From NCBI GenBank assembly GCA_012959765.1, contig DUCO01000049.1, positions 94,949-158,948 on the forward strand: a stretch of DNA of 64,000 bases, read 5' to 3'. Made by a program: the position numbers and the translations under genes. The DNA is from Dehalococcoidia bacterium (GTDB taxonomy: Bacteria > Chloroflexota > Dehalococcoidia > Lucifugimonadales > Lucifugimonadaceae). The notes beneath the pieces were generated by a model. It saw nothing but the letters and a program-made list of their open reading frames with translations. It was not told the origin of the DNA and did not search any database. Shown here in pieces: positions 1 to 45,427 of the stretch (its first letter is position 1; every line of letters starts with the position of its first letter).

Positions 1-937
1 CAACTGATCGGCCTTCGTGGATTCGCCTGATCGCTTCTCCAAGAAGCGGTGCGATTGAAATTACTTTGATCTTTGAGTTTACTTTGTCTTCGGGCAAAGG
101 CACCGTGTCGGTTATTACCAATTCTTTGATATGTGGAACGTCGGTAATTCGTTTTGACGCATCACCCGGCAGGACACCGTGAGTGGCGACTACGTAGATA
201 TCGCCACCACCCCGAGAAGTTATAGCGTCCACTGCCGAAAGCATCGTTCCGCCTGTGCTGATCTCATCGTCGAAGAGAATGATCGGGTGACCATCCACAT
301 CACCAATTACGTTCATACTCTCGACGCGGTCTTCATTTCCGAGCCGACGCTTCTCAACAATGGCCAGAGGTGCGTTTATCGCCCCAGCAAAGTCGCGCGC
401 CTTTTTGGTGATACCGATATCGGTTGCGACCACAACGGGATCTTTGAGATCACGATTCACAAAGTACTCGACGAGTCCCGGCATTGCGGTTAATTCATCA
501 ACCGGTACCTGGAAGAACCCTTGCACCTGTCCAGCGTGAAGGTCGATCATTACTACGCGGTCGGCGCCGGCAGTTTCTAGAAGATCGGCAACAAGACGGC
601 CAGTGATCGGCACGCGGGGTTGGTCTTTCTTGTCGGTTCGGGCGTAGCTGTAATAAGGAATTACCGCCGTAATACGACCCGCTGAAGCACGCTTCGCGGC
701 GTCGATCATGATCAGCAGTTCCATGATGTGATCATTCACCGGCTCAACGTCCGACTGCAGAATGAATACATCCTTCTGGCGAACATTCTCGAGAATACGC
801 ACGAAGGTGTTGTCGTTGGTGAACTTGAACACCTCGATCTGGCCGACTTCCTGCTGAAGGTAGTCGCAGATGTTTTGCACCAACTCAGGGTGCGAGTTTC
901 CAGCAAAAATAACCGGTTTTCCGTTAACCCCGTACAT
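1..937 (-). CDS. prs: ribose-phosphate pyrophosphokinase (3' end cut by window edge)
   Basis: Absent from the ORF track because it runs off the edge. Manual translation from the ATG at complement 935-937 gives MYGVNGKPVIFAGNSHPELVQNICDYL... It carries Prs motifs DLHAGQVQGFF and the PRPP loop ILFDDEISTGGT. Confidence 0.85.
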   Translation of the reverse strand, partial: MYGVNGKPVIFAGNSHPELVQNICDYLQQEVGQIEVFKFTNDNTFVRILENVRQKDVFILQSDVEPVNDHIMELLIMIDAAKRASAGRITAVIPYYSYARTDKKDQPRVPITGRLVADLLETAGADRVVMIDLHAGQVQGFFQVPVDELTAMPGLVEYFVNRDLKDPVVVATDIGITKKARDFAGAINAPLAIVEKRRLGNEDRVESMNVIGDVDGHPIILFDDEISTGGTMLSAVDAITSRGGGDIYVVATHGVLPGDASKRITDVPHIKELVITDTVPLPEDKVNSKIKVISIAPLLGEAIRRIHEGRSV

Positions 938-1765
938 TAGTTCCCCTTGAAATCCGGTCGTCGTTTTTCACGCAAAGCCACCATACCTTCAACATGATCG
1001 TTTGAGGATAGCGTGATTGCTTCCACCGCGGCAGACATTTCGAGAGAAGTTTCGAGATCCATTGACATCCCTCTGCGCATCATAGTTTTGGCCAAACGAA
1101 TCGCAATTGGTGGCCCGGAGGCAACTCGGCGCGCCATCTTTTCAGCAGTGCCAATCAGATCTTCTTCAGATACCACTGCGTTCAGGAAGCCGAGACTATT
1201 CGCTTCGTCGACTTCCATGAAGTTACCCATACACATCAGTTCTGCCGCCTTGGCGGTGCCGAATATTCGAGGGTAGAGCCACGTTCCGCCGTAACCGGGG
1301 AAGAGCCCGACATGAATGTACGCGGCCATGAAGCGTGCCGATTCGGAAGCGACTCGCATGTCGCACGCACAGGCAAGGTCGAACCCGGCGCCAACGGCCG
1401 ACCCGTTGATCGCCGCTATTACAGGTTTTCCCATCTGGTAAATGCCCAGAATCACCTTGCGAGCAAGCTTGAATCCTCTCTGCTCCACCGGGTCCTGGCT
1501 TGTGTGGGCCGTCGCCTGAGCCACCGACCATTTCATCGGTATCGGCACCCGAGCAAAACGCTTGACCAGCACCTGTGAGAATCACGGCGCGTATCGAATC
1601 GTCAGCCGCTACCACGTCGAGCGTGTCGGCCAAAGATTGAAGTAGTTCGTTACTGAGTGAGTTGAGGCGGTCGGGGCGATTGAGCGTGATAGTCGCGAAT
1701 CCGTGGTCACGGCTCACATCGAGTATCACGTTGGGAGTTGTCGAAATATCGGCAGTGTCTGGCAT
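937..1765 (-). pseudogene. enoyl-CoA hydratase/isomerase (crotonase) family, frameshifted
   Basis: ORF 1223-1765 gives the N-part (..AVILTGAGQAFCSGAD..). ORF 937-1572 gives the C-part (..KPVIAAINGSAVGAGFDLACACDMRVA..). They are in different frames, and one 1-nt shift somewhere in 1450-1555 joins them. Confidence 0.7.
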
Positions 1766-1940
1766 GCCGGGATTCTAGCACCAGCCCGGATCCGAAATGG
1801 CAAGATATTTTAATGGTCTCGAACTGATTTCGAGTCCAACTCTAGACCTGCGAAAATATCTGAGCACTCAATGTGCAGCGAAGATAATTTCCGCTTCTAG
1901 GCGCAGTGTTGTTCGACCGGTAAGCCGAACAACCAATCAT

Positions 1941-1962
1941 AAAAAGCGGAATGTCGCTTTTT
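1941..1962 (-). terminator. hairpin with flanking A/T runs (possibly bidirectional terminator)
   Basis: AAAAAGCG-gaatgt-CGCTTTTT lies directly at the stop of the 1961-2155 gene. A second 8-bp inverted repeat GTTGTTCG..CGAACAAC sits at 1908-1933. Confidence 0.5.
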
Positions 1963-2155
1963 AAGCAGCCTTCTGATCGGTGTACGGAAGCGGGGTCGCC
2001 GGTGCATCCAGCGGCTTTCCGAAAAGTCTTGCCGCCATTTCAGGCGAAAGGTCTTTCGAGAACCCACATTGCAAACACTTCAAGAAAGTGCCGTGCATGT
2101 CGCTATCGGCATTAATGTCGCCAGAGCATCGAGGGCAGGATTTGAGGTACAGCAT
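1961..2155 (-). CDS. small zinc-ribbon protein (two CxxC pairs), function unknown
   Basis: 64-aa ORF MLYLKSCPRCSGD...FLKCLQCGF followed by a terminator hairpin. Confidence 0.5.
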   Translation of the reverse strand: MLYLKSCPRCSGDINADSDMHGTFLKCLQCGFSKDLSPEMAARLFGKPLDAPATPLPYTDQKAA

Positions 2156-2334
2156 CTTCTTTCTCTTTCCCGTTTTTCAGGATCGAATTGAAAGTGCGTA
2201 CAGCCTATCCGTCTAAAAAATTCCCACGAACCGTCCCCACCGACACTCTTAATGCGTGCCTGCACCTAATTTTTCGAGACCTTAGTTACTTGCCACGGGC
2301 GGTGCCCGAGTTATTGGAGCGGTGGGTGAGCAGG

Positions 2335-2682
2335 CTAGATCAGTTCGTCGTATGCGCCCTGCTTAAAGCCGAAGATAATCTGTGAATCGTCGGTAAGAAT
2401 CGGTCGCCGAATCAGACGTGGCTCATTTACCATCATCTCAATCAACTCTTCTTCGGTAGCCTTGCCTCGGAGATCGCGATACGGCTTAGAACTCGGACTT
2501 CTCCAGGCGAACATCTCGTCGACCGACGAGAGTTTGCTCAGGTTTTTTATCTCGTCGCTCGAAAATTTTTCTTTGAAGAAATCTCGAAAATCGTACTCAG
2601 TACTTGAATCATTGAGAGCCCGACGGGCCTTCGAACACGTACTTCAACGAGACCAGCAGTAAAATTTCAGTTCTGTAGACAC
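2335..2682 (-). CDS. ArsC/Spx/YffB-family thioredoxin-fold protein with in-frame TGA (candidate Sec, UxxC)
   Basis: Manual translation gives (GTG)STELKFYCWSR-TGA-STCSKARRALNDSSTEYDFRDFFKEKFSSDEIKNL...VNEPRLIRRPILTDDSQIIFGFKQGAYDELI-TAG. The length is 348 nt (116 codons). The TGA lies at complement 2644-2646, the position of the first Cys of the family CxxC. Confidence 0.6.
2614..2632 (-). other. candidate SECIS-like hairpin downstream of the in-frame UGA
   Basis: Counting the U of UGA as 1, pairs G19-C29, C20-G28, C21-G27 and C22-G26 (plus G18-U30) close a G23-U24-C25 loop. An extension G15-C33/A16-U32 is possible. Confidence 0.4.
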
Positions 2683-2825
2683 TAATAAATCTCCGGATTT
2701 CTCTTCAGATTGTCGTCAGCTGGATGTGGGATTTTCCGGCAGGCTTCTGGTGAACAGAATGCTAAACCGCTTTCACACTATCCGCGATGTTCCGATAGGC
2801 TGAACCGTAACAGCAAAGGCACTCG

Positions 2826-4330: not shown

Positions 4331-5290
4331 ATGGACGTGTTTCTCGCGAGCCCTCGCGGCTTCTGCGCCGGAGTCGACCTTGCCGTCGACATCGTCGATC
4401 TCGCCATTCAGCAATACGGGATCCCGGTCTACGTAAAGCACCAGATTGTCCACAACCCCAAGGTTGTTGCCGATGTCGAAGCGAAGGGCGCAATCACGGT
4501 CGAAAACGTCGAAGAGGTTCCCGAAGGAGCCGTCGTCGTTTTCTCAGCACACGGCTCGCCGCCCTCTGATTACCAGATTGCAAGCCGCCGGGGTCTCACC
4601 GTGCTCGATGCAACATGCCCACTCGTAACCCGTGTTCACAACGAAGCCAAGAAGTACACCCGAGAGGGAAAGAAAATTGTGCTTGTGGGCCACGCGGGGC
4701 ACCAGGAAGTGATCGGAACAACGGGCCAGGCAGAAATGGAGCTTGTCGATGAACGGCAGGATTCCAAACTGCCCGATTGGTCCAAAGATTCCGAGGTCGC
4801 AGTCCTCACCCAAACCACCCTTTCGGTAAACGACACCGCCAGAGCAATCGCCAGAATAAAAAAGCGCCACCCGAACGCAGTTGTTCGAAACGACATCTGC
4901 TACGCCACAACCAACCGGCAGGCTGCGGCTACCGAGCTTGCCGATATGACAGAACTGGTTCTGGTAATTGGTGCTCAGAACAGTTCGAACTGCAACCGAC
5001 TCAAAGACGTTGCCATTAAAAAAGGCGTGCGCGCTCATCTGATAAACGGACCTGAAGAGCTGGATCATTCATGGCTTTATGGGGTTGAGAAAATCGGTAT
5101 TACATCGGGTGCCTCGACTCCCGAGAAACAGGTGAAAGCCGTTATCGAAGCTATTTCGCCAGATAACATATTTCGCGTTGGCCCCGGTGAAGATAAGACC
5201 ACGTTTGCAATACCTCGCAACCTACGTGGCATGGTTAGCGGCGGAACCCGCCAGAGCAAAGAAGATTTGATTCTCGATGAAGATAACTAG
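4331..5290 (+). CDS. ispH: 4-hydroxy-3-methylbut-2-enyl diphosphate reductase
   Basis: MDVFLASPRGFCAGVDLAV..., ..SAHGSPP.., ..TCPLVTRVH.., ..ICYATTNRQ.. are typical IspH/LytB blocks. Confidence 0.9.
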   Translation: MDVFLASPRGFCAGVDLAVDIVDLAIQQYGIPVYVKHQIVHNPKVVADVEAKGAITVENVEEVPEGAVVVFSAHGSPPSDYQIASRRGLTVLDATCPLVTRVHNEAKKYTREGKKIVLVGHAGHQEVIGTTGQAEMELVDERQDSKLPDWSKDSEVAVLTQTTLSVNDTARAIARIKKRHPNAVVRNDICYATTNRQAAATELADMTELVLVIGAQNSSNCNRLKDVAIKKGVRAHLINGPEELDHSWLYGVEKIGITSGASTPEKQVKAVIEAISPDNIFRVGPGEDKTTFAIPRNLRGMVSGGTRQSKEDLILDEDN

Positions 5291-6398
5291 CGTCGAATGC
5301 CTAGTGCTCGATGAAGAGTACCCGTACGTAATCCTTCACACAGACGATGGATTCACAGGATTCGGCGAGTGTTTTCGTCGCGCACCTTACGTTTCCAAGG
5401 TCGCAATCGAAACGGTGTTTGCACCTCTTGTAGTCGGCAAGTCTCCGTTCGACTCTGAAGAGATATGGGATCTGATGTTTAAGGCTGGCGCGGTCGCGGG
5501 TCCTCTTGGTGCGTTGCTAACGGCGGCGGCCGGCGTCGACCTGGCGCTGTGGGATCTCAAAGGGAAGATTCTCAACACCCCCATCTACAACCTGATCGGC
5601 GGTAAGCGTCGAGAAATGATCAAGGTTTACGCAAGTTCACTTGCCCGTGACCTCGCACCAAAAGATGAGGCCAAACGGGTTGCCCACTTCAGGGATCAGG
5701 GGTTCTCCGCTTACAAGATGCACTCGGCCATACCGGGCAAGATCGACGATCCGGGTGACCTCACGATCGAAACTGTGAAGGCGATTCGTGAAGAAGTCGG
5801 GTACGAAATGGATGTGCTGGTCGATGTGAACAGCGCTTACTCTGTGCATCACGCAATCGAAATCGGACTCCAACTTCAGGACCTCGGCGTGTTCCATTTC
5901 GAGGAGCCAGTTCACCTCCGCAACTACGCCGGGATGGCCGAAGTTGCCGACGCACTTGTGATGCCAGTAGCTTCGGGTGAGAACTCTTTCACCCGGTGGG
6001 AGCACCTGACTCTCATCCGAGAAGGCCGACCCGATATTGTGCAGCCCGACGTCGTGAAGGTTGGGGGAATCACCGAGTTCCTGCGCATCGAGGCTGTGCT
6101 CACAGCCCATGGCGCAACTATGACCACCCACAACACGCAGCCCTACGGATCGACCGCTGCCCACGCTCACCTGCTCGCCCCGAGCAACAACTTCCCGTAC
6201 GCACAGGAATACAACATCGAAGAAGTGGGCATCCGAGACAACGACTCGATTCTCGATACGCCGTACGAGGTTGAAGACGGCTTTATTCGTATACCAGACG
6301 GCCCCGGACTGGGACTCGACTACAACCTCGAGAAGATGCGAGCCCGCAGCAGCGATCGCCCGTCGGCGTTGGCCGACGTTTGGGGTCACATGCAGTAG
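5277..6398 (+). CDS. enolase-superfamily enzyme (mandelate racemase/MLE type, acid-sugar dehydratase-like)
   Basis: N-terminal capping domain MKITSVE..DDGFTGFGE. Barrel metal-ligand blocks VDVN, FEEP and SGEN, followed by QPDV.KVGG. Confidence 0.85.
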   Translation: MKITSVECLVLDEEYPYVILHTDDGFTGFGECFRRAPYVSKVAIETVFAPLVVGKSPFDSEEIWDLMFKAGAVAGPLGALLTAAAGVDLALWDLKGKILNTPIYNLIGGKRREMIKVYASSLARDLAPKDEAKRVAHFRDQGFSAYKMHSAIPGKIDDPGDLTIETVKAIREEVGYEMDVLVDVNSAYSVHHAIEIGLQLQDLGVFHFEEPVHLRNYAGMAEVADALVMPVASGENSFTRWEHLTLIREGRPDIVQPDVVKVGGITEFLRIEAVLTAHGATMTTHNTQPYGSTAAHAHLLAPSNNFPYAQEYNIEEVGIRDNDSILDTPYEVEDGFIRIPDGPGLGLDYNLEKMRARSSDRPSALADVWGHMQ

Positions 6399-13325: not shown

Positions 13326-14441
13326 CTACTCATCCACAACATTGTTCTTCAGTGCGTCGGGGTTAATTTCGAGACCAAGCCCCGGCCTATCTTCAAACGG
13401 CTTCCACGTTCCGTCATCTCCGTATGGCGGCACCTCTGTCCACCAGACGCCGTTGCTCTGCTCTTCTGCGCCAAGCACTTCGACCACCTTCAAGTTCGGT
13501 GTCGCCATGGCGCAGTGCAGATGAACAAGCGACACGGCGTGGGGAGCAACTGGAAGATTGAACGCATCGGCCATCGCAGCAACCTTCATCCACTCAGTTA
13601 TACCCGTAACTCGATGAACGTCGGGCTGAACAATATCTACGGCCCCTGCCATCAGTAAATCCCTGAAACCGTACTTGGTGTACTCGTGCTCTCCAGTTGC
13701 AACCGGAATCGTAGTTGCCTGCGAAACCTGCGCTAGTCCGGGAATATCGTCAGCGAGAACCGGTTCTTCGAACCACGCCACATCGAACTGCTCGAATATC
13801 TGCGATATTTTTATCGCCTGTTTGGCCTTGTAACCGTTATTGGCATCGACGTATATCTCCACATCGTCCCCCACAGCCGCCCGTACCGCGGCAAGCCGCT
13901 CGACATCTTCTCGCTCCGACTGGCCAAAGTCTTTGGCAACTTTCATCTTCACCCGTGGAATGCCGCGCTCGACATACGCAGTCTGCTCGGCGACAAGCTC
14001 GGCCTCAGAGTAGTTCGTCCACCCGCCTGATCCGTAGATCGGCACAGTTTCGTGCGCCGGTCCTAGCAGTCGATAAATCGGCTGGTTCAGAACCTTACCT
14101 TTGAGATCCCACAGGGCGATATCGATAGCCGCTATCGCCTGAAATGCCAGCCCCTTGCGACCAAACCCACGCACTCTCCAGAACATGTCCTGCCACAGCT
14201 TTTCGATCATGAACGGGTCTTGCCCAACCAGAATCGGGCTCAAGTTCTCATGGATCACTTCTCGAATAGCGCGCTGTCCCGGTGCCATCCCGAGACCGAT
14301 AACGCCTTCGTCAGTGTGAATGTGAACGAACAGCTGGTTGCGACCCGTTGCGCTCGGATCAATCGGCGGAATCGTTGCATCCTGAATCACAAACCCGTTC
14401 GGGTCGCGCAGCATAGTGGTTTTGATCTCTGTGATTTTCAT
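13326..14441 (-). CDS. enolase-superfamily enzyme (mandelate racemase/MLE type)
   Basis: MKITEIKT.., KMKV, YVDANNGY, FEEP, TGEHE and QPDV blocks. Confidence 0.85.
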   Translation of the reverse strand: MKITEIKTTMLRDPNGFVIQDATIPPIDPSATGRNQLFVHIHTDEGVIGLGMAPGQRAIREVIHENLSPILVGQDPFMIEKLWQDMFWRVRGFGRKGLAFQAIAAIDIALWDLKGKVLNQPIYRLLGPAHETVPIYGSGGWTNYSEAELVAEQTAYVERGIPRVKMKVAKDFGQSEREDVERLAAVRAAVGDDVEIYVDANNGYKAKQAIKISQIFEQFDVAWFEEPVLADDIPGLAQVSQATTIPVATGEHEYTKYGFRDLLMAGAVDIVQPDVHRVTGITEWMKVAAMADAFNLPVAPHAVSLVHLHCAMATPNLKVVEVLGAEEQSNGVWWTEVPPYGDDGTWKPFEDRPGLGLEINPDALKNNVVDE

Positions 14442-34152: not shown

Positions 34153-35298
34153 TTACCCCAACACCAATCCGCCGTCGGCACTGCGTGACGATTCACCAGT
34201 GCCAGCGTCATACGGGTGTTTTGCCATTTCCTCGACGTTTATGTCGATGCCCAGACCCGGTGCTTCCGACGGGATGAAATACCCGTCCACCACAGGAGAA
34301 ACGTTCGAAACGATGTCTTCCCTGAACGTCCCGACTTCAGGATTGAATTCGTTCACATTCCAGTTCGGAGTCGCCGTGGCGATGTGAGTATTAGCCATGT
34401 TGGCGATCGGCCCCAAAAAGTGATGCGGCGCCATCTTGATGTGGAAGCTTTCGGCCATCGCAGCGATCTTCTTCACATGGGTGAACCCGCCCGCAAGACC
34501 GATATCGGGCTTCAGGAAGCTCACACCCGGCAGCGTGCAGTATTCGCGGAACTCCCACAGCGTGTTGTTCCGCTCACCGATTGCCAGCGGAATCTTGACC
34601 TTATCGCCAACGCCGCCCATCGACATCACCGAATCGGGTGCGATGGGGTCTTCGTAGAAATACGGCAGGAACTTTTCGATCTGCTGGGCGAATACGACTG
34701 ATGATCCGGGGAACATGTTTCGGTGAATTTCGATCCCAATGTCGAAGTCCCAGCCAACTTCTTCTCGCACCGCTTCGACTATTGCCGTGTTTTGCCGAAT
34801 CAGATCGCCGTGAGCCAGCTCGCCCCAGTTGTTCGGGAACGGCGTCATCTTGAGTGCGGTGTAGCCATCGTTCTTGGCCATACGAGCCGCTTTAGCGAAG
34901 CTTTCGGGAGTCGATAGCGGACCCACCGAGTCGCTGTAGGAGCCAAGTAGAACAATCGCCCGGACTTTGTCTCGAACCTTGCCACCTAGAAGATCCCAGA
35001 CCGGCGCGCCAAACCGCTTGCCTTTGATGTCCCACAACGCAATGTCGATCGCCGACAGCACGGCCGTAATCGCCGGACTGCGGAACGAGTACTTGCGATA
35101 GGCGGTGTTCCAGATGCGGTCGACATCACGAGGGTCAAGCCCTCGAATGTCGTCTTCAATCCGGTGCGCAATCACCTCGGTGGCGTCTGCGTAGCTCCAG
35201 AAGTTGCCCTCGCCAACGCCGTAGGTGCCATCGTCGCAGGTGACTCGAACGGTCAACCACCTGAATACCAGCCAGGTCTCAATTTTTTCAATTTTCAT
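34153..35298 (-). CDS. enolase-superfamily dehydratase (D-galactonate/D-mannonate dehydratase-like subgroup)
   Basis: MKIEKIETW.., ..DIALWDIKGK.., IEIHRN, YEDP and IGERN blocks. Confidence 0.85.
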   Translation of the reverse strand: MKIEKIETWLVFRWLTVRVTCDDGTYGVGEGNFWSYADATEVIAHRIEDDIRGLDPRDVDRIWNTAYRKYSFRSPAITAVLSAIDIALWDIKGKRFGAPVWDLLGGKVRDKVRAIVLLGSYSDSVGPLSTPESFAKAARMAKNDGYTALKMTPFPNNWGELAHGDLIRQNTAIVEAVREEVGWDFDIGIEIHRNMFPGSSVVFAQQIEKFLPYFYEDPIAPDSVMSMGGVGDKVKIPLAIGERNNTLWEFREYCTLPGVSFLKPDIGLAGGFTHVKKIAAMAESFHIKMAPHHFLGPIANMANTHIATATPNWNVNEFNPEVGTFREDIVSNVSPVVDGYFIPSEAPGLGIDINVEEMAKHPYDAGTGESSRSADGGLVLG

Positions 35299-35480: not shown

Positions 35481-36473
35481 CTACTTATGCAGCCCATACA
35501 AACTCGTGTCAGTTACCGTTTCAATTAGCGACTGGATGTAGCCGTTGGCGAACGCCTTTGCACGGTGCCCGTACGCCGTATCGCCGATAGTCATCGGAAC
35601 GTGATCGTCCATGAAGAAGCCATCGAAACCGTTCTCAGCGTAAATGCGTATCGCCCGGTACATATCGACGTGGCCCTTGTTCACAAACGTCTCGTGGAAC
35701 TTCGGCACGGTGCCAGCGACGTTACGGAAGTGAACATACAAAACACGTTCACGCTTCACGAAATATTCGATCATGTCGTAGATGCTCTCGCCGTTGTCCC
35801 GATCGGCACCCGCCATCTGAGAGAACGATCCCTGGCAAAGCAGAATCGAGTTGTACGGGCTGTCGACAATGTCGATCAATCGCTTGTAATTCTCGAAGTT
35901 GAACACCAGTTGCGGAACGCCACCAATCACCTCCATCGGAGGATCGACCGGGTGAATCCCGAGTTTCACGCCATACATTTCGGCTACCGGAGTCGCCTCT
36001 TTGACCCAGGTCTCAAGACATTCCCACGCCCGGGCCAGTGATAGACCCCAGTCGATAACGCTCGGCCAGTGCTCAAGCTCGGCATCGTAGGCAGTGCCAA
36101 GCGCACCCCAACCGATATCGATATGACCCGTGCGGTAGAACCGCGGGTATCGCCAGCTCATGGTGTACATCGGGATACCGGCATTACCGATGTTCTTGAT
36201 AGTTTCGAGCATGTTCGAGAGCTGCTCGTCGAAGCGAGGTCCGCCAGCGATCATGTGGTGCCGCATATCGATCGGCGTATTCTCAATCGCCGTCAGTTCC
36301 AGTCCCCACTCGTTGACACCGTTCTTCAGTCCAACAAGATCGCCGAGCTCCCAGACTCCGTTTCGCACGGCCACGGGGGGAGTGTTCAGCACAACATCCT
36401 GCACGCCAAGCTGCGCCATGAAGCGCAGGGCTTCCCTGTTTGCGGAGCTGTTGAGGCCCATTCCGATCCTCAT
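35481..36473 (-). CDS. UxuA-like (mannonate dehydratase family) protein
   Basis: ..LYVHFRNVAGTVPKFHETFVNKGHVDMYRAI..FFMDDHVP..FANGYIQ.. are UxuA family C-terminal blocks. Confidence 0.75.
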   Translation of the reverse strand: MRIGMGLNSSANREALRFMAQLGVQDVVLNTPPVAVRNGVWELGDLVGLKNGVNEWGLELTAIENTPIDMRHHMIAGGPRFDEQLSNMLETIKNIGNAGIPMYTMSWRYPRFYRTGHIDIGWGALGTAYDAELEHWPSVIDWGLSLARAWECLETWVKEATPVAEMYGVKLGIHPVDPPMEVIGGVPQLVFNFENYKRLIDIVDSPYNSILLCQGSFSQMAGADRDNGESIYDMIEYFVKRERVLYVHFRNVAGTVPKFHETFVNKGHVDMYRAIRIYAENGFDGFFMDDHVPMTIGDTAYGHRAKAFANGYIQSLIETVTDTSLYGLHK

Positions 36474-37495
36474 TAGTTGGCTCCTTTCACGACTTTGCTC
36501 ATATCAACCGGACCGCCGTAAGCGACTTCCTTTTCGACCGCTTCGATCACCCCGGCGATGTAGCCCTGAGCGAACAAACGCGAACGGTAGCCGCCAAGGT
36601 TTCCTGGGAAGTCGGTGTCGTCGACCATCAGCGGACAGTGATCGTCGATAAAGTTTCCTTTGAATCCGGCGTCACGGTATGTGCGCATCGCCTTCTTCAT
36701 GTCGACATAGCCGGTGTTGATGAACTCCTCGTTGAACGCGGGAGCCTTGCCGCTGACGTTGCGGAAGTGAACGTAAAGAATCTTGTTTCGCTTACCGAAG
36801 TAGTCGATCATTTGGTAGATATCTTCGCCGGGCATTTCTGAGAACGTGCCCTGACAGAACTCGATAGCGTTGTAGTCGGAATCAACGATCTCGGTGAGTC
36901 GCTTGAACGCCGCAAAGTTGCGGAACAATCCGGGCACACCACCACGCTGAGGAACTGGCGGGTCGTCGGGGTGAATGCCACAAAGCATTCCAACCTCTTC
37001 GGCAACCGGCGTCACAGCCTTGATCCAGTACTCAAGGGCGTCCCACATGGTTTCTTCGTCCATGTCTTCGCCAAACGTCGAAGGACGTCGTGAGTTCTCC
37101 CAGTCGTAGTCGTAGCCGGTGCCCATTGCGCCGCCACGCACCATCGTCGGTTGCGCCCTGCCCCAGCTGTTTGGCATCCAGTTGTAGCCGTAGATCGGGA
37201 TGCCTGCACGACCCATGTCGCGAACCTGAATCAGCAGATCCTCGATCAGTTCGTCCTGTTTGGGACCACCAAAAATCACATCGTGATAGTCGAAACTTGG
37301 CGAAAAACCGCCTTCGATAGCAGCGAGTTTCAGACCGTACGATTCGATCTTCATTCGCATCGCCACGTAGTCCTGGTACTTCATGTGCGGACTACCCGCG
37401 CCGCCGTAAACCAGGATGTTTTTGATGCCGTATTGCGCTGCCGTTTGCAGCACTTCTTCACCTGCGGGGTGGAAGATCGCAACCATCGGTTCCAT
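36473..37495 (-). CDS. UxuA-like (mannonate dehydratase family) protein, tandem paralogue
   Basis: ..LYVHFRNVSGKAPAFNEEFINTGYVDMKKAM..FIDDHCP.. Its stop overlaps the downstream paralogue's start (TAATG at 36471-36475). Confidence 0.75.
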   Translation of the reverse strand: MEPMVAIFHPAGEEVLQTAAQYGIKNILVYGGAGSPHMKYQDYVAMRMKIESYGLKLAAIEGGFSPSFDYHDVIFGGPKQDELIEDLLIQVRDMGRAGIPIYGYNWMPNSWGRAQPTMVRGGAMGTGYDYDWENSRRPSTFGEDMDEETMWDALEYWIKAVTPVAEEVGMLCGIHPDDPPVPQRGGVPGLFRNFAAFKRLTEIVDSDYNAIEFCQGTFSEMPGEDIYQMIDYFGKRNKILYVHFRNVSGKAPAFNEEFINTGYVDMKKAMRTYRDAGFKGNFIDDHCPLMVDDTDFPGNLGGYRSRLFAQGYIAGVIEAVEKEVAYGGPVDMSKVVKGAN

Positions 37496-39297: not shown

Positions 39298-39861
39298 ATG
39301 AAATTACGATTGTCTGGTATTTCGATTCTCCTGCTGGCAACAGCGTTGTTCGCCGTGGCATGCGGGGCAAGCTCTGATTCCGAATCGGCGACCGGCGTCG
39401 CGAAAATAACGCCTTCAGAAACTGTTTACACGCTCGACGATCTGCTGGAAGTCGGCTTCAAGAAAGATAAGACTTTCGATGTCGAGGGTCTGACTGCAGC
39501 GACTCACGCCTACTACGGCTTCTGGGGAGTCGATCCGTACGATCGCAAAGAGTACGAAGCTCGCTTCTATGCGTCACATGCCGACGCCGTGGAATTCGGT
39601 GTTGTGTTCGCCGACGAACGCACCGGAGAGGACGCCGTTATTAAATCGGGCGAAACGATGTGGGAGGAAGGTGCGAAGGACGCTCGGGCGTGCGTTCGGA
39701 TATCCAGCAACGCAAGTTGCCATCTTTCGAAGTACGGCGACTACGTTATCTACGGCAATATGATTCTGATCTGCCAGGGCCGTGATTCATCGACTTCGCT
39801 GGAGCAGTGCGGCGCATTGCTAGGTGCGCTGGTGCCGGGGTTCGGTTTGAGCGCGGGTTAA
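39298..39861 (+). CDS. lipoprotein of unknown family (paralogue 2)
   Basis: Lipobox FAVACGAS. Blocks shared with paralogue 1 include AYYGFWGVDPYDRKE.EARFY.SHADAVE and SKYGDYVIYGNMIL.CQGRDSST.LEQC. Confidence 0.6.
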   Translation: MKLRLSGISILLLATALFAVACGASSDSESATGVAKITPSETVYTLDDLLEVGFKKDKTFDVEGLTAATHAYYGFWGVDPYDRKEYEARFYASHADAVEFGVVFADERTGEDAVIKSGETMWEEGAKDARACVRISSNASCHLSKYGDYVIYGNMILICQGRDSSTSLEQCGALLGALVPGFGLSAG

Positions 39862-41018
39862 TACAACCCGGTCTCACCTGGTTCTGGCGGGATGATGTAA
39901 AGCCCTGCGCCTTTACGCCGTGAGCCGGGCATGCCGGTGCCTTTTGTTGCTGGTGGGTTGGCCTGCATCTCAGCGATAGCTTTTTCGTCGATCGCGAAAC
40001 CCCAGCCCGGTGATTCGCCCATCTCGATAAAACCGTCAACGACTCGATTGTCGATCGTCACACCAGTAGCGGGCTGAAGATCTTTCATCTCCTGCGCCAG
40101 GTGATTCGGAGCAGCCGCAGCGGCGTGCGCCATGCAGCTTCCCGGCTGGCCAATTATCGAAACAGGAAGCTCGTACGCCTCGGCGAAGTGGGCGATCTGC
40201 AAGAAGCTCGTCAACCCCAGCGTTCCGAACTGCACCACATCTACAGCTTCGTTGTGAATCAGCGGGTAGAACTCGTCGATCCCGTTAATGTTCTCGCCGG
40301 TCGCAACCGCGGTCTTGATACCTCGTGAAATCTGCCTCAAGCCCCGATAGTCCCAGCGACGTCCCGGCTCTTCGGCCCACGTCAGATCAAACTTTTCTTC
40401 GATTCTTGAGATATAGCGAATAGCCTGTTTAGCCGACCAGTACTCGTTCGAGTCGATCATCAAAAGCGGCTCTTTGGCGTTCTGCTTGAGAATGTCTCGC
40501 ATGATCTTGAGCCGCCGCATGTCGGAATCGAAATCGAGTCCAACTTTCAGTTTCCCACCGTCGATTCCGAGATCGGCATATGTCTGGTAAAACGCTGCCA
40601 GCTCGTCGTCGGTCATGCCCATATCGAGCCCCGATGCGTAAGCCTTCACTCGCGGCTCGTGTGCACCAAGCATTCGCCACAACGGCTCGCCGGCGTCTTT
40701 CGCCTTGATGTCCCACATCGCCGCGTCGAGTGCGCACATTGCGCCGTACATCGAACCCTCGACTCCGCCCTTGAAGCCAACGTCCGACATCTCTTTCCAG
40801 AGGCCAATTACGCCACGGGGATCTTTGCCTTCGAGAATCGGGAACAACTTTTCGACGTCGGGTGATGAAGCTGGAGCGATGCCGGTTATTCCGGCGTCGG
40901 TTTCCAAAAAGAGATAGGTCGCACTCGATACATCGTCAGGCGCAACGCTGTTGGCGTCGCCGCTCGGGTGACCACGGTGAAACGACCATGAAAGTGTTCG
41001 ATATCCAGTTATCCGCAT
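39858..41018 (-). CDS. enolase-superfamily enzyme (mandelate racemase/MLE type)
   Basis: ..DAAMWDIKAK.., KLKVG, MIDSNEYW, AEEP and TGENI blocks, plus a ~35-aa C-terminal extension. Confidence 0.8.
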   Translation of the reverse strand: MRITGYRTLSWSFHRGHPSGDANSVAPDDVSSATYLFLETDAGITGIAPASSPDVEKLFPILEGKDPRGVIGLWKEMSDVGFKGGVEGSMYGAMCALDAAMWDIKAKDAGEPLWRMLGAHEPRVKAYASGLDMGMTDDELAAFYQTYADLGIDGGKLKVGLDFDSDMRRLKIMRDILKQNAKEPLLMIDSNEYWSAKQAIRYISRIEEKFDLTWAEEPGRRWDYRGLRQISRGIKTAVATGENINGIDEFYPLIHNEAVDVVQFGTLGLTSFLQIAHFAEAYELPVSIIGQPGSCMAHAAAAAPNHLAQEMKDLQPATGVTIDNRVVDGFIEMGESPGWGFAIDEKAIAEMQANPPATKGTGMPGSRRKGAGLYIIPPEPGETGLY

Positions 41019-44428: not shown

Positions 44429-45427
44429 CTACCCCTGTTTCGTAACTGCTTCGATCATTGCCTGGATGTAGCCGTTGGCGAACGCTCGACCCCGGTGGCC
44501 GAAGTGGGTGTCCTGGTGGGTGTGCGGAACGTGATCGTCGATGAAGAAGCTGTCGTAGCTGTTGTCGTAGTACGCCTTCATCGCTCGGTACATATCGACG
44601 TGACCCGTGTTGATGAACTCCTCTTTGAAGTCCTCCGGGTTCGGCGCAGAAACGTTGCGGAAGTGAACGTATAGAACCTTCTTCTTCGCGACCATCTCGG
44701 CAATAAATTCATACAGGGCGTCGCCTTCTGAATCGAACATTTCGGAGACGGTTCCCTGGCAGAACTCGATGGCGCAGTTGTCGGACGGATAGATGTCTAA
44801 GTAACGACGGTAATTGTCGTACGAATTGAACAGCATCGGAATGCCACCGAGCTGCTGCACCGGTGGATCGCACGGGTGAATGCCGAGTCGAATGCCCTCT
44901 TCTTCAGCAATCGGCGTAATTATCTTGATCCAGTACTCGAGGTTCTCCCACATCTCCTCTTCGGTGTATTCCCGACCGTGCGTGAGCGGTAGTTTCTTGG
45001 CGATTTCGTAGTTGAAAGCAGTCGCCGCGGAACCGCCTCGAATCAACTCGGGCGGAGTTCGCCATACATGCGAAGGCATCCAGTGATAGCCGAAAATCGG
45101 AATGCCAGCCCGGGCGATATTTCGCACCGTGGTGATCATGTTGTCGACTTGCTCGTCACGCTTCGGACCGTTCAGCATGATGTGGTCGTAGAACTTGGTC
45201 GGCACGTTTTCGAGGGCGGAAAGAGTGAGCCCGTAGTTCTCGACATTCCTGCGCAGGTTCACCAGATCGTGCACCGCCCACGTACCGTTGTCACCGGGGA
45301 GATTCGGCGTGTTGAACACGATGTCGTTCATGCCGAACTGCTGCGCGTACAGCAGAAATTCAGGTGTTGCCTGGTTGATTTGTCCGAGTCCTGCACGCAT
45401 TGGCTTCGTCTCTCCTGATCTGTTCAC
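44429..45427 (-). CDS. UxuA-like (mannonate dehydratase family) protein, third paralogue
   Basis: ..LYVHFRNVSAPNPEDFKEEFINTGHVDMYRAM..FIDDHVP..FANGYIQ.. Confidence 0.75.
   Translation of the reverse strand: MNRSGETKPMRAGLGQINQATPEFLLYAQQFGMNDIVFNTPNLPGDNGTWAVHDLVNLRRNVENYGLTLSALENVPTKFYDHIMLNGPKRDEQVDNMITTVRNIARAGIPIFGYHWMPSHVWRTPPELIRGGSAATAFNYEIAKKLPLTHGREYTEEEMWENLEYWIKIITPIAEEEGIRLGIHPCDPPVQQLGGIPMLFNSYDNYRRYLDIYPSDNCAIEFCQGTVSEMFDSEGDALYEFIAEMVAKKKVLYVHFRNVSAPNPEDFKEEFINTGHVDMYRAMKAYYDNSYDSFFIDDHVPHTHQDTHFGHRGRAFANGYIQAMIEAVTKQG

Follow-up and report, generated by a model that had tools for sequence, protein, structure and literature searches.

This study reports that a 64,000-nucleotide stretch from a Dehalococcoidia bacterium (Chloroflexota; contig DUCO01000049.1, positions 94,949 to 158,948 of the forward strand; hereafter the window, to whose numbering all coordinates refer) carries on its minus strand, at 2335..2682, a gene of 115 codons predicted to encode a selenoprotein of the ArsC/Spx/YffB fold, with 114 residues plus one selenocysteine (Sec) at position 13. 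Based on comparative sequence analysis, we put the probability that this is a genuine Sec-encoding gene, whose in-frame UGA is read as selenocysteine, at about 0.9. A first-pass annotation, made from the letters of the window alone, had proposed such a replacement of Cys by Sec in a UxxC motif, and the proposal is supported here by a conserved TGA, a Sec/Cys pair among homologues and a covarying hairpin downstream of the UGA.

A gene with a single in-frame UGA on the minus strand of the window

The predicted coding sequence (CDS) is bounded by a GTG start (2680-2682) and a TAG stop (2335-2337), and a GGAG Shine-Dalgarno sequence lies on the same strand at 2691..2694, 8 nt 5′ of the start. Translation of the minus strand from 2682 to 2335 gives VSTELKFYCWSR-TGA-STCSKARRAL...GAYDELI followed by TAG, so that re-translation reproduces the first-pass observation of an open reading frame (ORF) with one interruption only, the TGA at complement 2644-2646. 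This TGA is codon 13, the presumed Sec codon, which would supply the U of a U-S-T-C redox motif. As had also been stated, the ORF track shows no convincing minus-strand gene at this place; over the ArsC-like gene it lists only a 59-aa remnant at 2335-2514, and the first in-frame start 3′ of the TGA in the window copy is codon 57. Public contigs of metagenome-assembled genomes (MAGs) with the same sequence (JAPOGP010000204.1 and its siblings) contain the ArsC-like ORF without a gene call.

With the TGA translated as Cys, the conceptual product matches the PF03960 (ArsC) hidden Markov model with 51.9 bits (cutoff 24), residues 8-113 aligning with profile positions 1-78 of 79, which upholds the earlier assignment to an ArsC/Spx/YffB-type protein; sequence matches in the PDB are an ArsC-related protein, Spx and YffB. 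The best NCBIfam model is TIGR01617 (Spx/MgsR-type arsC_related), for which the score of 73.2 bits falls just below the cutoff of 75.05. Scores also stay below the cutoffs for the Spx-specific models NF002459, NF009885 and NF009210 (35-44 bits; cutoffs 123-159), for NF008107 (YffB-type ArsC family reductase; 42.3 bits, cutoff 121), for TIGR00014 (glutaredoxin-dependent ArsC; 34.6 bits, cutoff 106) and for NF041106 (ArsC family (seleno)protein; 33.5 bits, cutoff 85). An AlphaFold2 model of a Cys-containing homologue (predicted local distance difference test score, pLDDT, 87) places the motif at the β1-α1 junction, and Foldseek comparison of this model returns Spx with a template modelling (TM) score of 0.87, YffB (1RW1) with a TM of 0.84 and R773 ArsC with a TM of 0.73 and a root-mean-square deviation of 3.9. 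In alignment, U13 falls on Spx Cys10 and C16 on Spx Cys13, the two residues of the CxxC redox switch, and the LIRRPI motif falls on the LLRRPI motif of Spx.

The TGA is conserved at the position of a redox cysteine

TGA stands at codon 13 in all 38 orthologous copies (30 unique CDS), which have equal length and frame and comprise the window, 10 species-representative genomes from a genome scan and 27 contigs from a metagenome scan; reversion to Cys at this codon occurs in none of the 38. The ten species-level genomes are marine Dehalococcoidia/Chloroflexota, and one of them, a complete genome (NZ_CP046146.1), belongs to Ca. Lucifugimonas marina JH545, a SAR202 bacterium in culture. A protein look-up adds a clade represented by P0020 (~70% identity, TTG start) and the sequence L055, both of which keep the TGA and the hairpin. 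Therefore, the question raised with the first-pass reading, whether orthologues carry TGA or TGY and conserve the hairpin, is answered in favor of TGA with a conserved hairpin in the 38 copies, the P0020 clade and L055, with TGY in none of them. The flank of codon 13 conserved in the orthologues reads LKFYCWSR*STCQKARRAL.

A database search returned 61 protein homologues, 49 of which are fragments of 64-89 aa that begin after the TGA and span only the C-terminal 51-77% of the query, as would be expected if a conserved in-frame stop kept gene callers from reading the whole gene. Ten others are full-length Cys-type proteins at 43-49% identity (P0041, P0050-P0052 and P0054-P0059), and one, P0001, is full length with W at the TGA position. 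The Cys homologues L012-L015 and the ten full-length database proteins have C-S-T-C at the columns of U-S-T-C, forming a Sec/Cys pair. Together with the alignment to Spx Cys10, the Cys in these homologues agrees with the first-pass claim that the TGA occupies the place of the first Cys of the CxxC motif.

Both flanks of the TGA are under protein-level selection in the same frame. Over the 12 codons 5′ of the TGA the amino acids are unchanged and the codons vary synonymously (mean synonymous entropy 0.99), with swaps among TCT/TCC/TCA/TCG, AAA/AAG, TAC/TAT and TGC/TGT. Among 11 aligned orthologues the start codon is GTG, ATG or TTG at one fixed position, and GGAG, GGAGG or GGAGA precedes it by 6-10 nt in all 11, the remaining intergenic region being unconserved. 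The synonymous-only variation and the conserved Shine-Dalgarno sequence indicate, therefore, that translation starts 5′ of the TGA and runs through it in one frame. We conclude that this is an unannotated but genuine gene for a predicted small redox protein, found across marine SAR202.

A covarying SECIS-like hairpin follows the UGA

A stem-loop resembling a selenocysteine insertion sequence (SECIS) occupies positions 15-33, counted from the U of the UGA as 1, and thus begins 11 nt after the UGA (2614..2632, minus strand), with the apical loop G23-U24-C25 at 2622-2624 on that strand. The helix is made up of G15-C33, A16-U32, an invariant A17/C31 mismatch, R18-U30 (G18-U30 in the window), G19-C29, C20-G28, C21-G27 and C22-G26. 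The five pairs from G18-U30 to C22-G26 around G23-U24-C25 are exactly those claimed by the first-pass annotation, and the window helix is lengthened beyond them by A16-U32 and G15-C33 across the A17/C31 mismatch.

The pairing is kept in all 30 unique sequences (175 of 175 cells paired), and G23 and U24 are invariant. Pair 15-33 is GC in 21 sequences and AU in 9, both changes being synonymous; pair 21-27 is CG in 29 and UA in one; pair 18-30 appears as AU, GU or GC, and pair 19-29 as GC or GU. Three pairs (15-33, 21-27 and 18-30) have thus changed on both sides in a compensatory way. The observed covariation score was reached by none of 500 shuffles, slid registers are only 29-53% paired, and RNAalifold, unaided, predicts the same 15-33 helix. 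Synonymous-site entropy is minimal over codons 19-24, at 0.46 against 1.24 in the rest of the gene, which points to selection on the RNA besides the protein. The hairpin is missing from this register in the Cys-type homologues. When the 2194 TGA sites on both strands of the window were compared, all seven pairs together with G23U24 in this register were found at one site, namely this TGA, and shuffled windows contain a mean of 0.15 TGA sites with the full configuration.

According to the published consensus for bacterial SECIS (bSECIS) elements, the apical loop has 3-9 nt with a G in its first two positions, the upper stem has 4-16 bp, the UGA-to-loop distance is 16-37 nt and the minimum free energy (MFE) is at most -7.5 kcal/mol (PMC13188914). 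The hairpin lies within each of these bounds, with a 3-nt loop, G23 as its first base, a 5-bp upper stem plus two further pairs, 19 nt from UGA to loop and an MFE of -8.7 kcal/mol. The SECIS check suggested along with the first-pass reading has, therefore, a divided outcome, in that the published consensus is satisfied but no Rfam covariance model was matched.

The occurrence of G23/U24 at the spacing of the Escherichia coli fdhF SECIS, also claimed earlier, agrees with the actual MG1655 sequence, in which the apical loop is GGUC at 22-25. Both elements are stem-loops inside the CDS with G23-U24 in the apical loop at equal spacing, and both are irregular at position 17, by the A17/C31 mismatch here and by a bulged U at 17/18 in fdhF. 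However, the hairpin has only 7 pairs, whereas the full fdhF element has ~17, its loop is the 3-nt GUC instead of the 4-nt GGUC, and the stems share no sequence similarity.

Proposed Sec insertion and its alternatives

We propose that translation would begin at GTG (2682) behind the GGAG Shine-Dalgarno sequence and that the ribosome would reach the UGA at codon 13, where the hairpin at 15-33 could work as a bacterial SECIS and recruit SelB-GTP-Sec-tRNA(Sec), so that Sec would be incorporated where translation would otherwise end, and synthesis would continue over the remaining 102 codons. The product would be a small cytoplasmic thioredoxin-fold protein of the ArsC/Spx/YffB type, with the first Cys of its N-terminal CxxC replaced by Sec (U13-S-T-C16), and it could cycle between the selenol/thiol form and a U13-C16 selenenylsulfide. 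The most likely role is that of a selenol/thiol-disulfide oxidoreductase. The conserved neighbourhood of the gene lacks ars genes, and the genomic context indicates no role in arsenic resistance.

Several observations weigh against Sec insertion. The genes selA, selB and selD and a tRNA-Sec were not found in the window or in ~350 kb of relatives' loci, which are largely syntenic with the window: ARAGORN detected no tRNA, and hence no tRNA-Sec, in the window and 38 related loci, none of 40 window ORFs scanned against NCBIfam and Pfam was identified as SelA, SelB or SelD, and tblastn of the E. coli SelA, SelB and SelD against the window and all relatives' loci gave no hits. Neither the window nor the relatives' flanks contain another convincing single-TGA Sec candidate. 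The hairpin itself is short (5+2 bp with a 3-nt loop), and it matches no Rfam family, either at gathering thresholds over the whole window or in a permissive E-value scan of 2500-2720, where the sole hit, a snoRNA at E = 2.7, was dismissed as chance. Its single-sequence fold energy is no better than that of shuffles (z = -0.02), a z-score that is uninformative; the support for the hairpin therefore comes from the comparative data, not from thermodynamics.

With regard to the lineage, all five bins assigned to 'Chloroflexi; SAR202 clade' (16, 22, 87, 90 and 127) in a published data set carry COG1921 SelA, COG3276 SelB and COG0709 SelD, but these bins are sponge-associated and do not belong to the pelagic clade with this gene (PMC5649159, Table S4 and Table 1). 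In BSepDB, the ten bacteria richest in selenoprotein genes include two Dehalococcoidia MAGs, which have 46 and 49 of them, and among the papers searched the name 'UBA1141' occurs only in the one on that database (PMC13326102). None of the papers searched joins SAR202 with a selenoprotein, and selenium is not mentioned in the JH545 cultivation paper and its supplements.

That no Sec genes were found in the window and these loci could also be understood if the UGA were read through independently of SelB, with a near-cognate or suppressor tRNA inserting Trp, Cys or another residue and the hairpin slowing termination or serving another role in the RNA. The P0001 entry, translated with W at the TGA, could be cited for this, but its W is most simply the work of a gene caller that used an alternative code on a 995-bp contig. 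The homologues have a redox Cys, not Trp, at the aligned residue, and Trp at the first CxxC position would inactivate the redox motif, which does not fit with the strong purifying selection on the gene. The hairpin, moreover, is of the SelB type, with a GU loop at fdhF spacing and agreement with the bSECIS consensus, and SelA, SelB and SelD have been reported in SAR202-clade bins (PMC5649159). We thus consider SelB-independent readthrough highly unlikely. Less credible again is a pseudogene, an assembly or base-call error, or a truncated protein made from an internal start behind a 12-codon leader peptide, to which one might be led by gene callers returning only fragments or nothing. The same TGA recurs in 38 copies from many independent projects, including 10 species-level genomes, and in the two look-up sequences; this recurrence in independent assemblies dispels the base-call error that the first-pass annotation had envisaged and, together with purifying selection, excludes error and pseudogene alike. 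A leader peptide is at odds with the 12 upstream codons, which are conserved as protein and align with what is strand β1 in the model of the Cys homologue. As for truncation, no internal start is conserved, the gene callers choosing L, M or V at different positions in different orthologues, and a product from codon 57 would be without β1, the redox motif and helix α1.

The idea that TGA has been reassigned or is unassigned in this lineage (similar to code 4 or 25), and would hence be an ordinary sense codon, was rejected and has practically no probability. It could be suggested by the stop usage of the window, where 44 ORFs of at least 200 aa end with TAG in 27 cases, TAA in 13 and TGA in only 4. 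However, in-frame TGA is absent from 56 standard-code ORFs that span 51.5 kb (~17,000 codons). If TGA is taken as sense, the coverage grows by little, from 51.5 to 52.3 kb, and out-of-frame ORFs with as many as 17 TGAs arise. TGA serves as the stop of 4-5 window ORFs, and TGA-terminated ORFs would be extended by just 2-5 codons. In relatives, where TGA closes 8 of the 31 and 10 of the 30 long ORFs (18 of 61 combined), its rate of use as a stop is normal. As an observation in its own right, the TAG-dominant and TGA-poor stops of the window are unusual at ~55% GC, in what is a small sample; in the relatives' loci the stops are more even (TAG 14, TAA 9, TGA 8).

Relation to known selenoproteins and regulators of the ArsC superfamily

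Sec insertion in this protein would not constitute a novel selenoprotein type, and to this extent the first-pass reading is limited, because catalogues have included ArsC-like UxxC selenoproteins since 2006-2008. 'ArsC-like' has been listed as a bacterial selenoprotein family since 2006 (PMC1794560), the Global Ocean Sampling (GOS) marine selenoproteome contains 77 sequences of 'Arsenate reductase 1 (UxxS)' and 42 of 'Arsenate reductase 2 (UxxC)' (PMC2398784), and a 2026 review tabulates the Sec forms TIGR00014 (UxxS) and NF041106 (UxxC) (PMC13188914). The window protein resembles the UxxC family of the GOS data (ArsC-2) in its PF03960/thioredoxin-like fold, its length of ~110-115 aa, the UxxC at the β1-α1 junction, a SECIS directly downstream inside the CDS and the marine distribution. 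However, it is only 19% identical to the ArsC-2 example, which scores 116 bits with NF041106 against 33.5 for the window protein, and it has the motifs WRSPSSKPYR and EPRLIRRPIL, which the GOS family does not have; both signatures are absent from the portion of the GOS dataset that was searched. The example of the other GOS family, ArsC-1, is TIGR00014-like, with 97.9 bits. With R773 ArsC (TIGR00014) and its UxxS Sec form, the window protein shares the Pfam family and the structural position of the catalytic Cys/Sec, but it has UxxC instead of UxxS/CxxS, a weaker structural match and no ars genes nearby. Because of the 19% identity to GOS ArsC-2 and the low NF041106 and TIGR00014 scores, we regard this as a further, predicted Sec-bearing clade of the ArsC superfamily, fitting neither curated Sec-ArsC family.

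The best structural match of the Cys homologue of the window protein is the Spx/MgsR group (TIGR01617; PDB 1Z3E, 3GFK, 6GHB; TM 0.87). The [U/C]-x-x-C-(R/S)-K-A-R segment corresponds residue for residue to Spx C10-T-S-C13-R-K-A-R, and LxRRPI is common to both. The two differ, however, in that the window protein has 115 aa against 131-132 in Spx, being ~16 aa shorter and without the Spx C-terminal extension, and its score for the Spx models is far too low (43.7 against 123). Spx Gly52, known to be needed for binding the α C-terminal domain of RNA polymerase, aligns beside a 2-residue gap and is Ser in the window protein. Spx is a regulator of Firmicutes, whereas the window protein comes from Chloroflexota, and we know of no Sec-containing Spx. 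A Spx-like regulatory role is a low-probability alternative to that of an oxidoreductase, and it is unlikely that the clade, which appears fixed in the sampled pelagic SAR202, forms a third, independently evolved Sec lineage of the ArsC/Spx superfamily that perhaps acts as a Spx-like regulator. If it were true, and the protein sensed redox state and contacted RNA polymerase or a different partner by way of a U13-C16 selenenylsulfide switch, it would be the first regulator of transcription or redox signalling among selenoproteins, and selenium availability would be linked to the stress signalling of a bacterial clade that ranks among the most abundant in the deep ocean.

For the selenoprotein oxidoreductase proposed here, no new mechanism is implied and the knowledge of how selenoproteins work is unchanged; its value lies mainly in annotation, and the biological gain is smaller. 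The gene is missed or shortened in essentially every public annotation, so that SAR202 proteomes are without a conserved redox protein, and the curated selenoprotein models NF041106 and TIGR00014 do not capture the clade. Sec decoding appears to have been kept throughout pelagic SAR202. This includes JH545, the sole representative in culture, and since JH545 carries the gene, it could offer a culturable system for studying selenium dependence in an abundant deep-ocean clade. In addition, the hairpin would provide a compact, covariation-supported bSECIS (19 nt) of fdhF-like geometry from a distant phylum.

Genomic neighbourhood and other features of the window

The gene order around the locus is conserved and consists of a divergently transcribed major facilitator superfamily (MFS) transporter, the ArsC-like gene, a 64-aa zinc-ribbon-like ORF, an enoyl-CoA hydratase, a phosphoribosyl pyrophosphate (PRPP) synthetase and SecA. 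The 64-aa ORF (1961-2155, minus strand; MLYLKSCPRCSGDINADSDMHGTFLKCLQCGF...), directly downstream of the selenoprotein gene, has a CxxC...CxxC zinc-ribbon-like pattern; its position is conserved in the orthologous loci, its variation lies in third codon positions and it has its own ribosome-binding site, and it gave no Pfam hit. A recurrent 'MPIATCTxxS[TGA]SxC', which had appeared as a second U-x-x-C candidate, proved to be an out-of-frame reading of this ORF and was rejected. Between the selenoprotein stop and the zinc-ribbon ORF, a non-coding stretch of ~65 nt (~2230-2295, minus strand; GTGGCAAGTAACTAAGGTCTCGAAAAATTAGGTGCAGGCACGCATTAAGAGTGTCGGTGGGGACGG) is conserved in the orthologous loci; it has no Rfam match at gathering thresholds, and it may act as a promoter or operator or form a small structured element.

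Upstream of the enoyl-CoA hydratase, the sequence GGTGCTAGAAT at ~1764-1788 (minus strand) is conserved in 9 of 10 aligned loci and resembles an extended -10 element (TGnTAnAAT-like). The enoyl-CoA hydratase gene itself (937-1765, minus strand) is split in the window into an N-terminal (1223-1765) and a C-terminal (937-1572) part of the family models, which overlap in different frames; in relatives it is a single gene of 271-279 aa, and the split is probably a frameshift that reflects either an assembly error or a pseudogene. Farther away, the window carries several MR_MLE enolase-superfamily dehydratase and UxuA-like mannonate dehydratase paralogues together with several MFS transporters (13326-14441, 34153-35298, 39858-41018 and 5277-6398; 35481-37495 and 44429-45427), and these paralogues match the catabolic paralogue expansions described for SAR202 in an earlier paper (PMC10444878).

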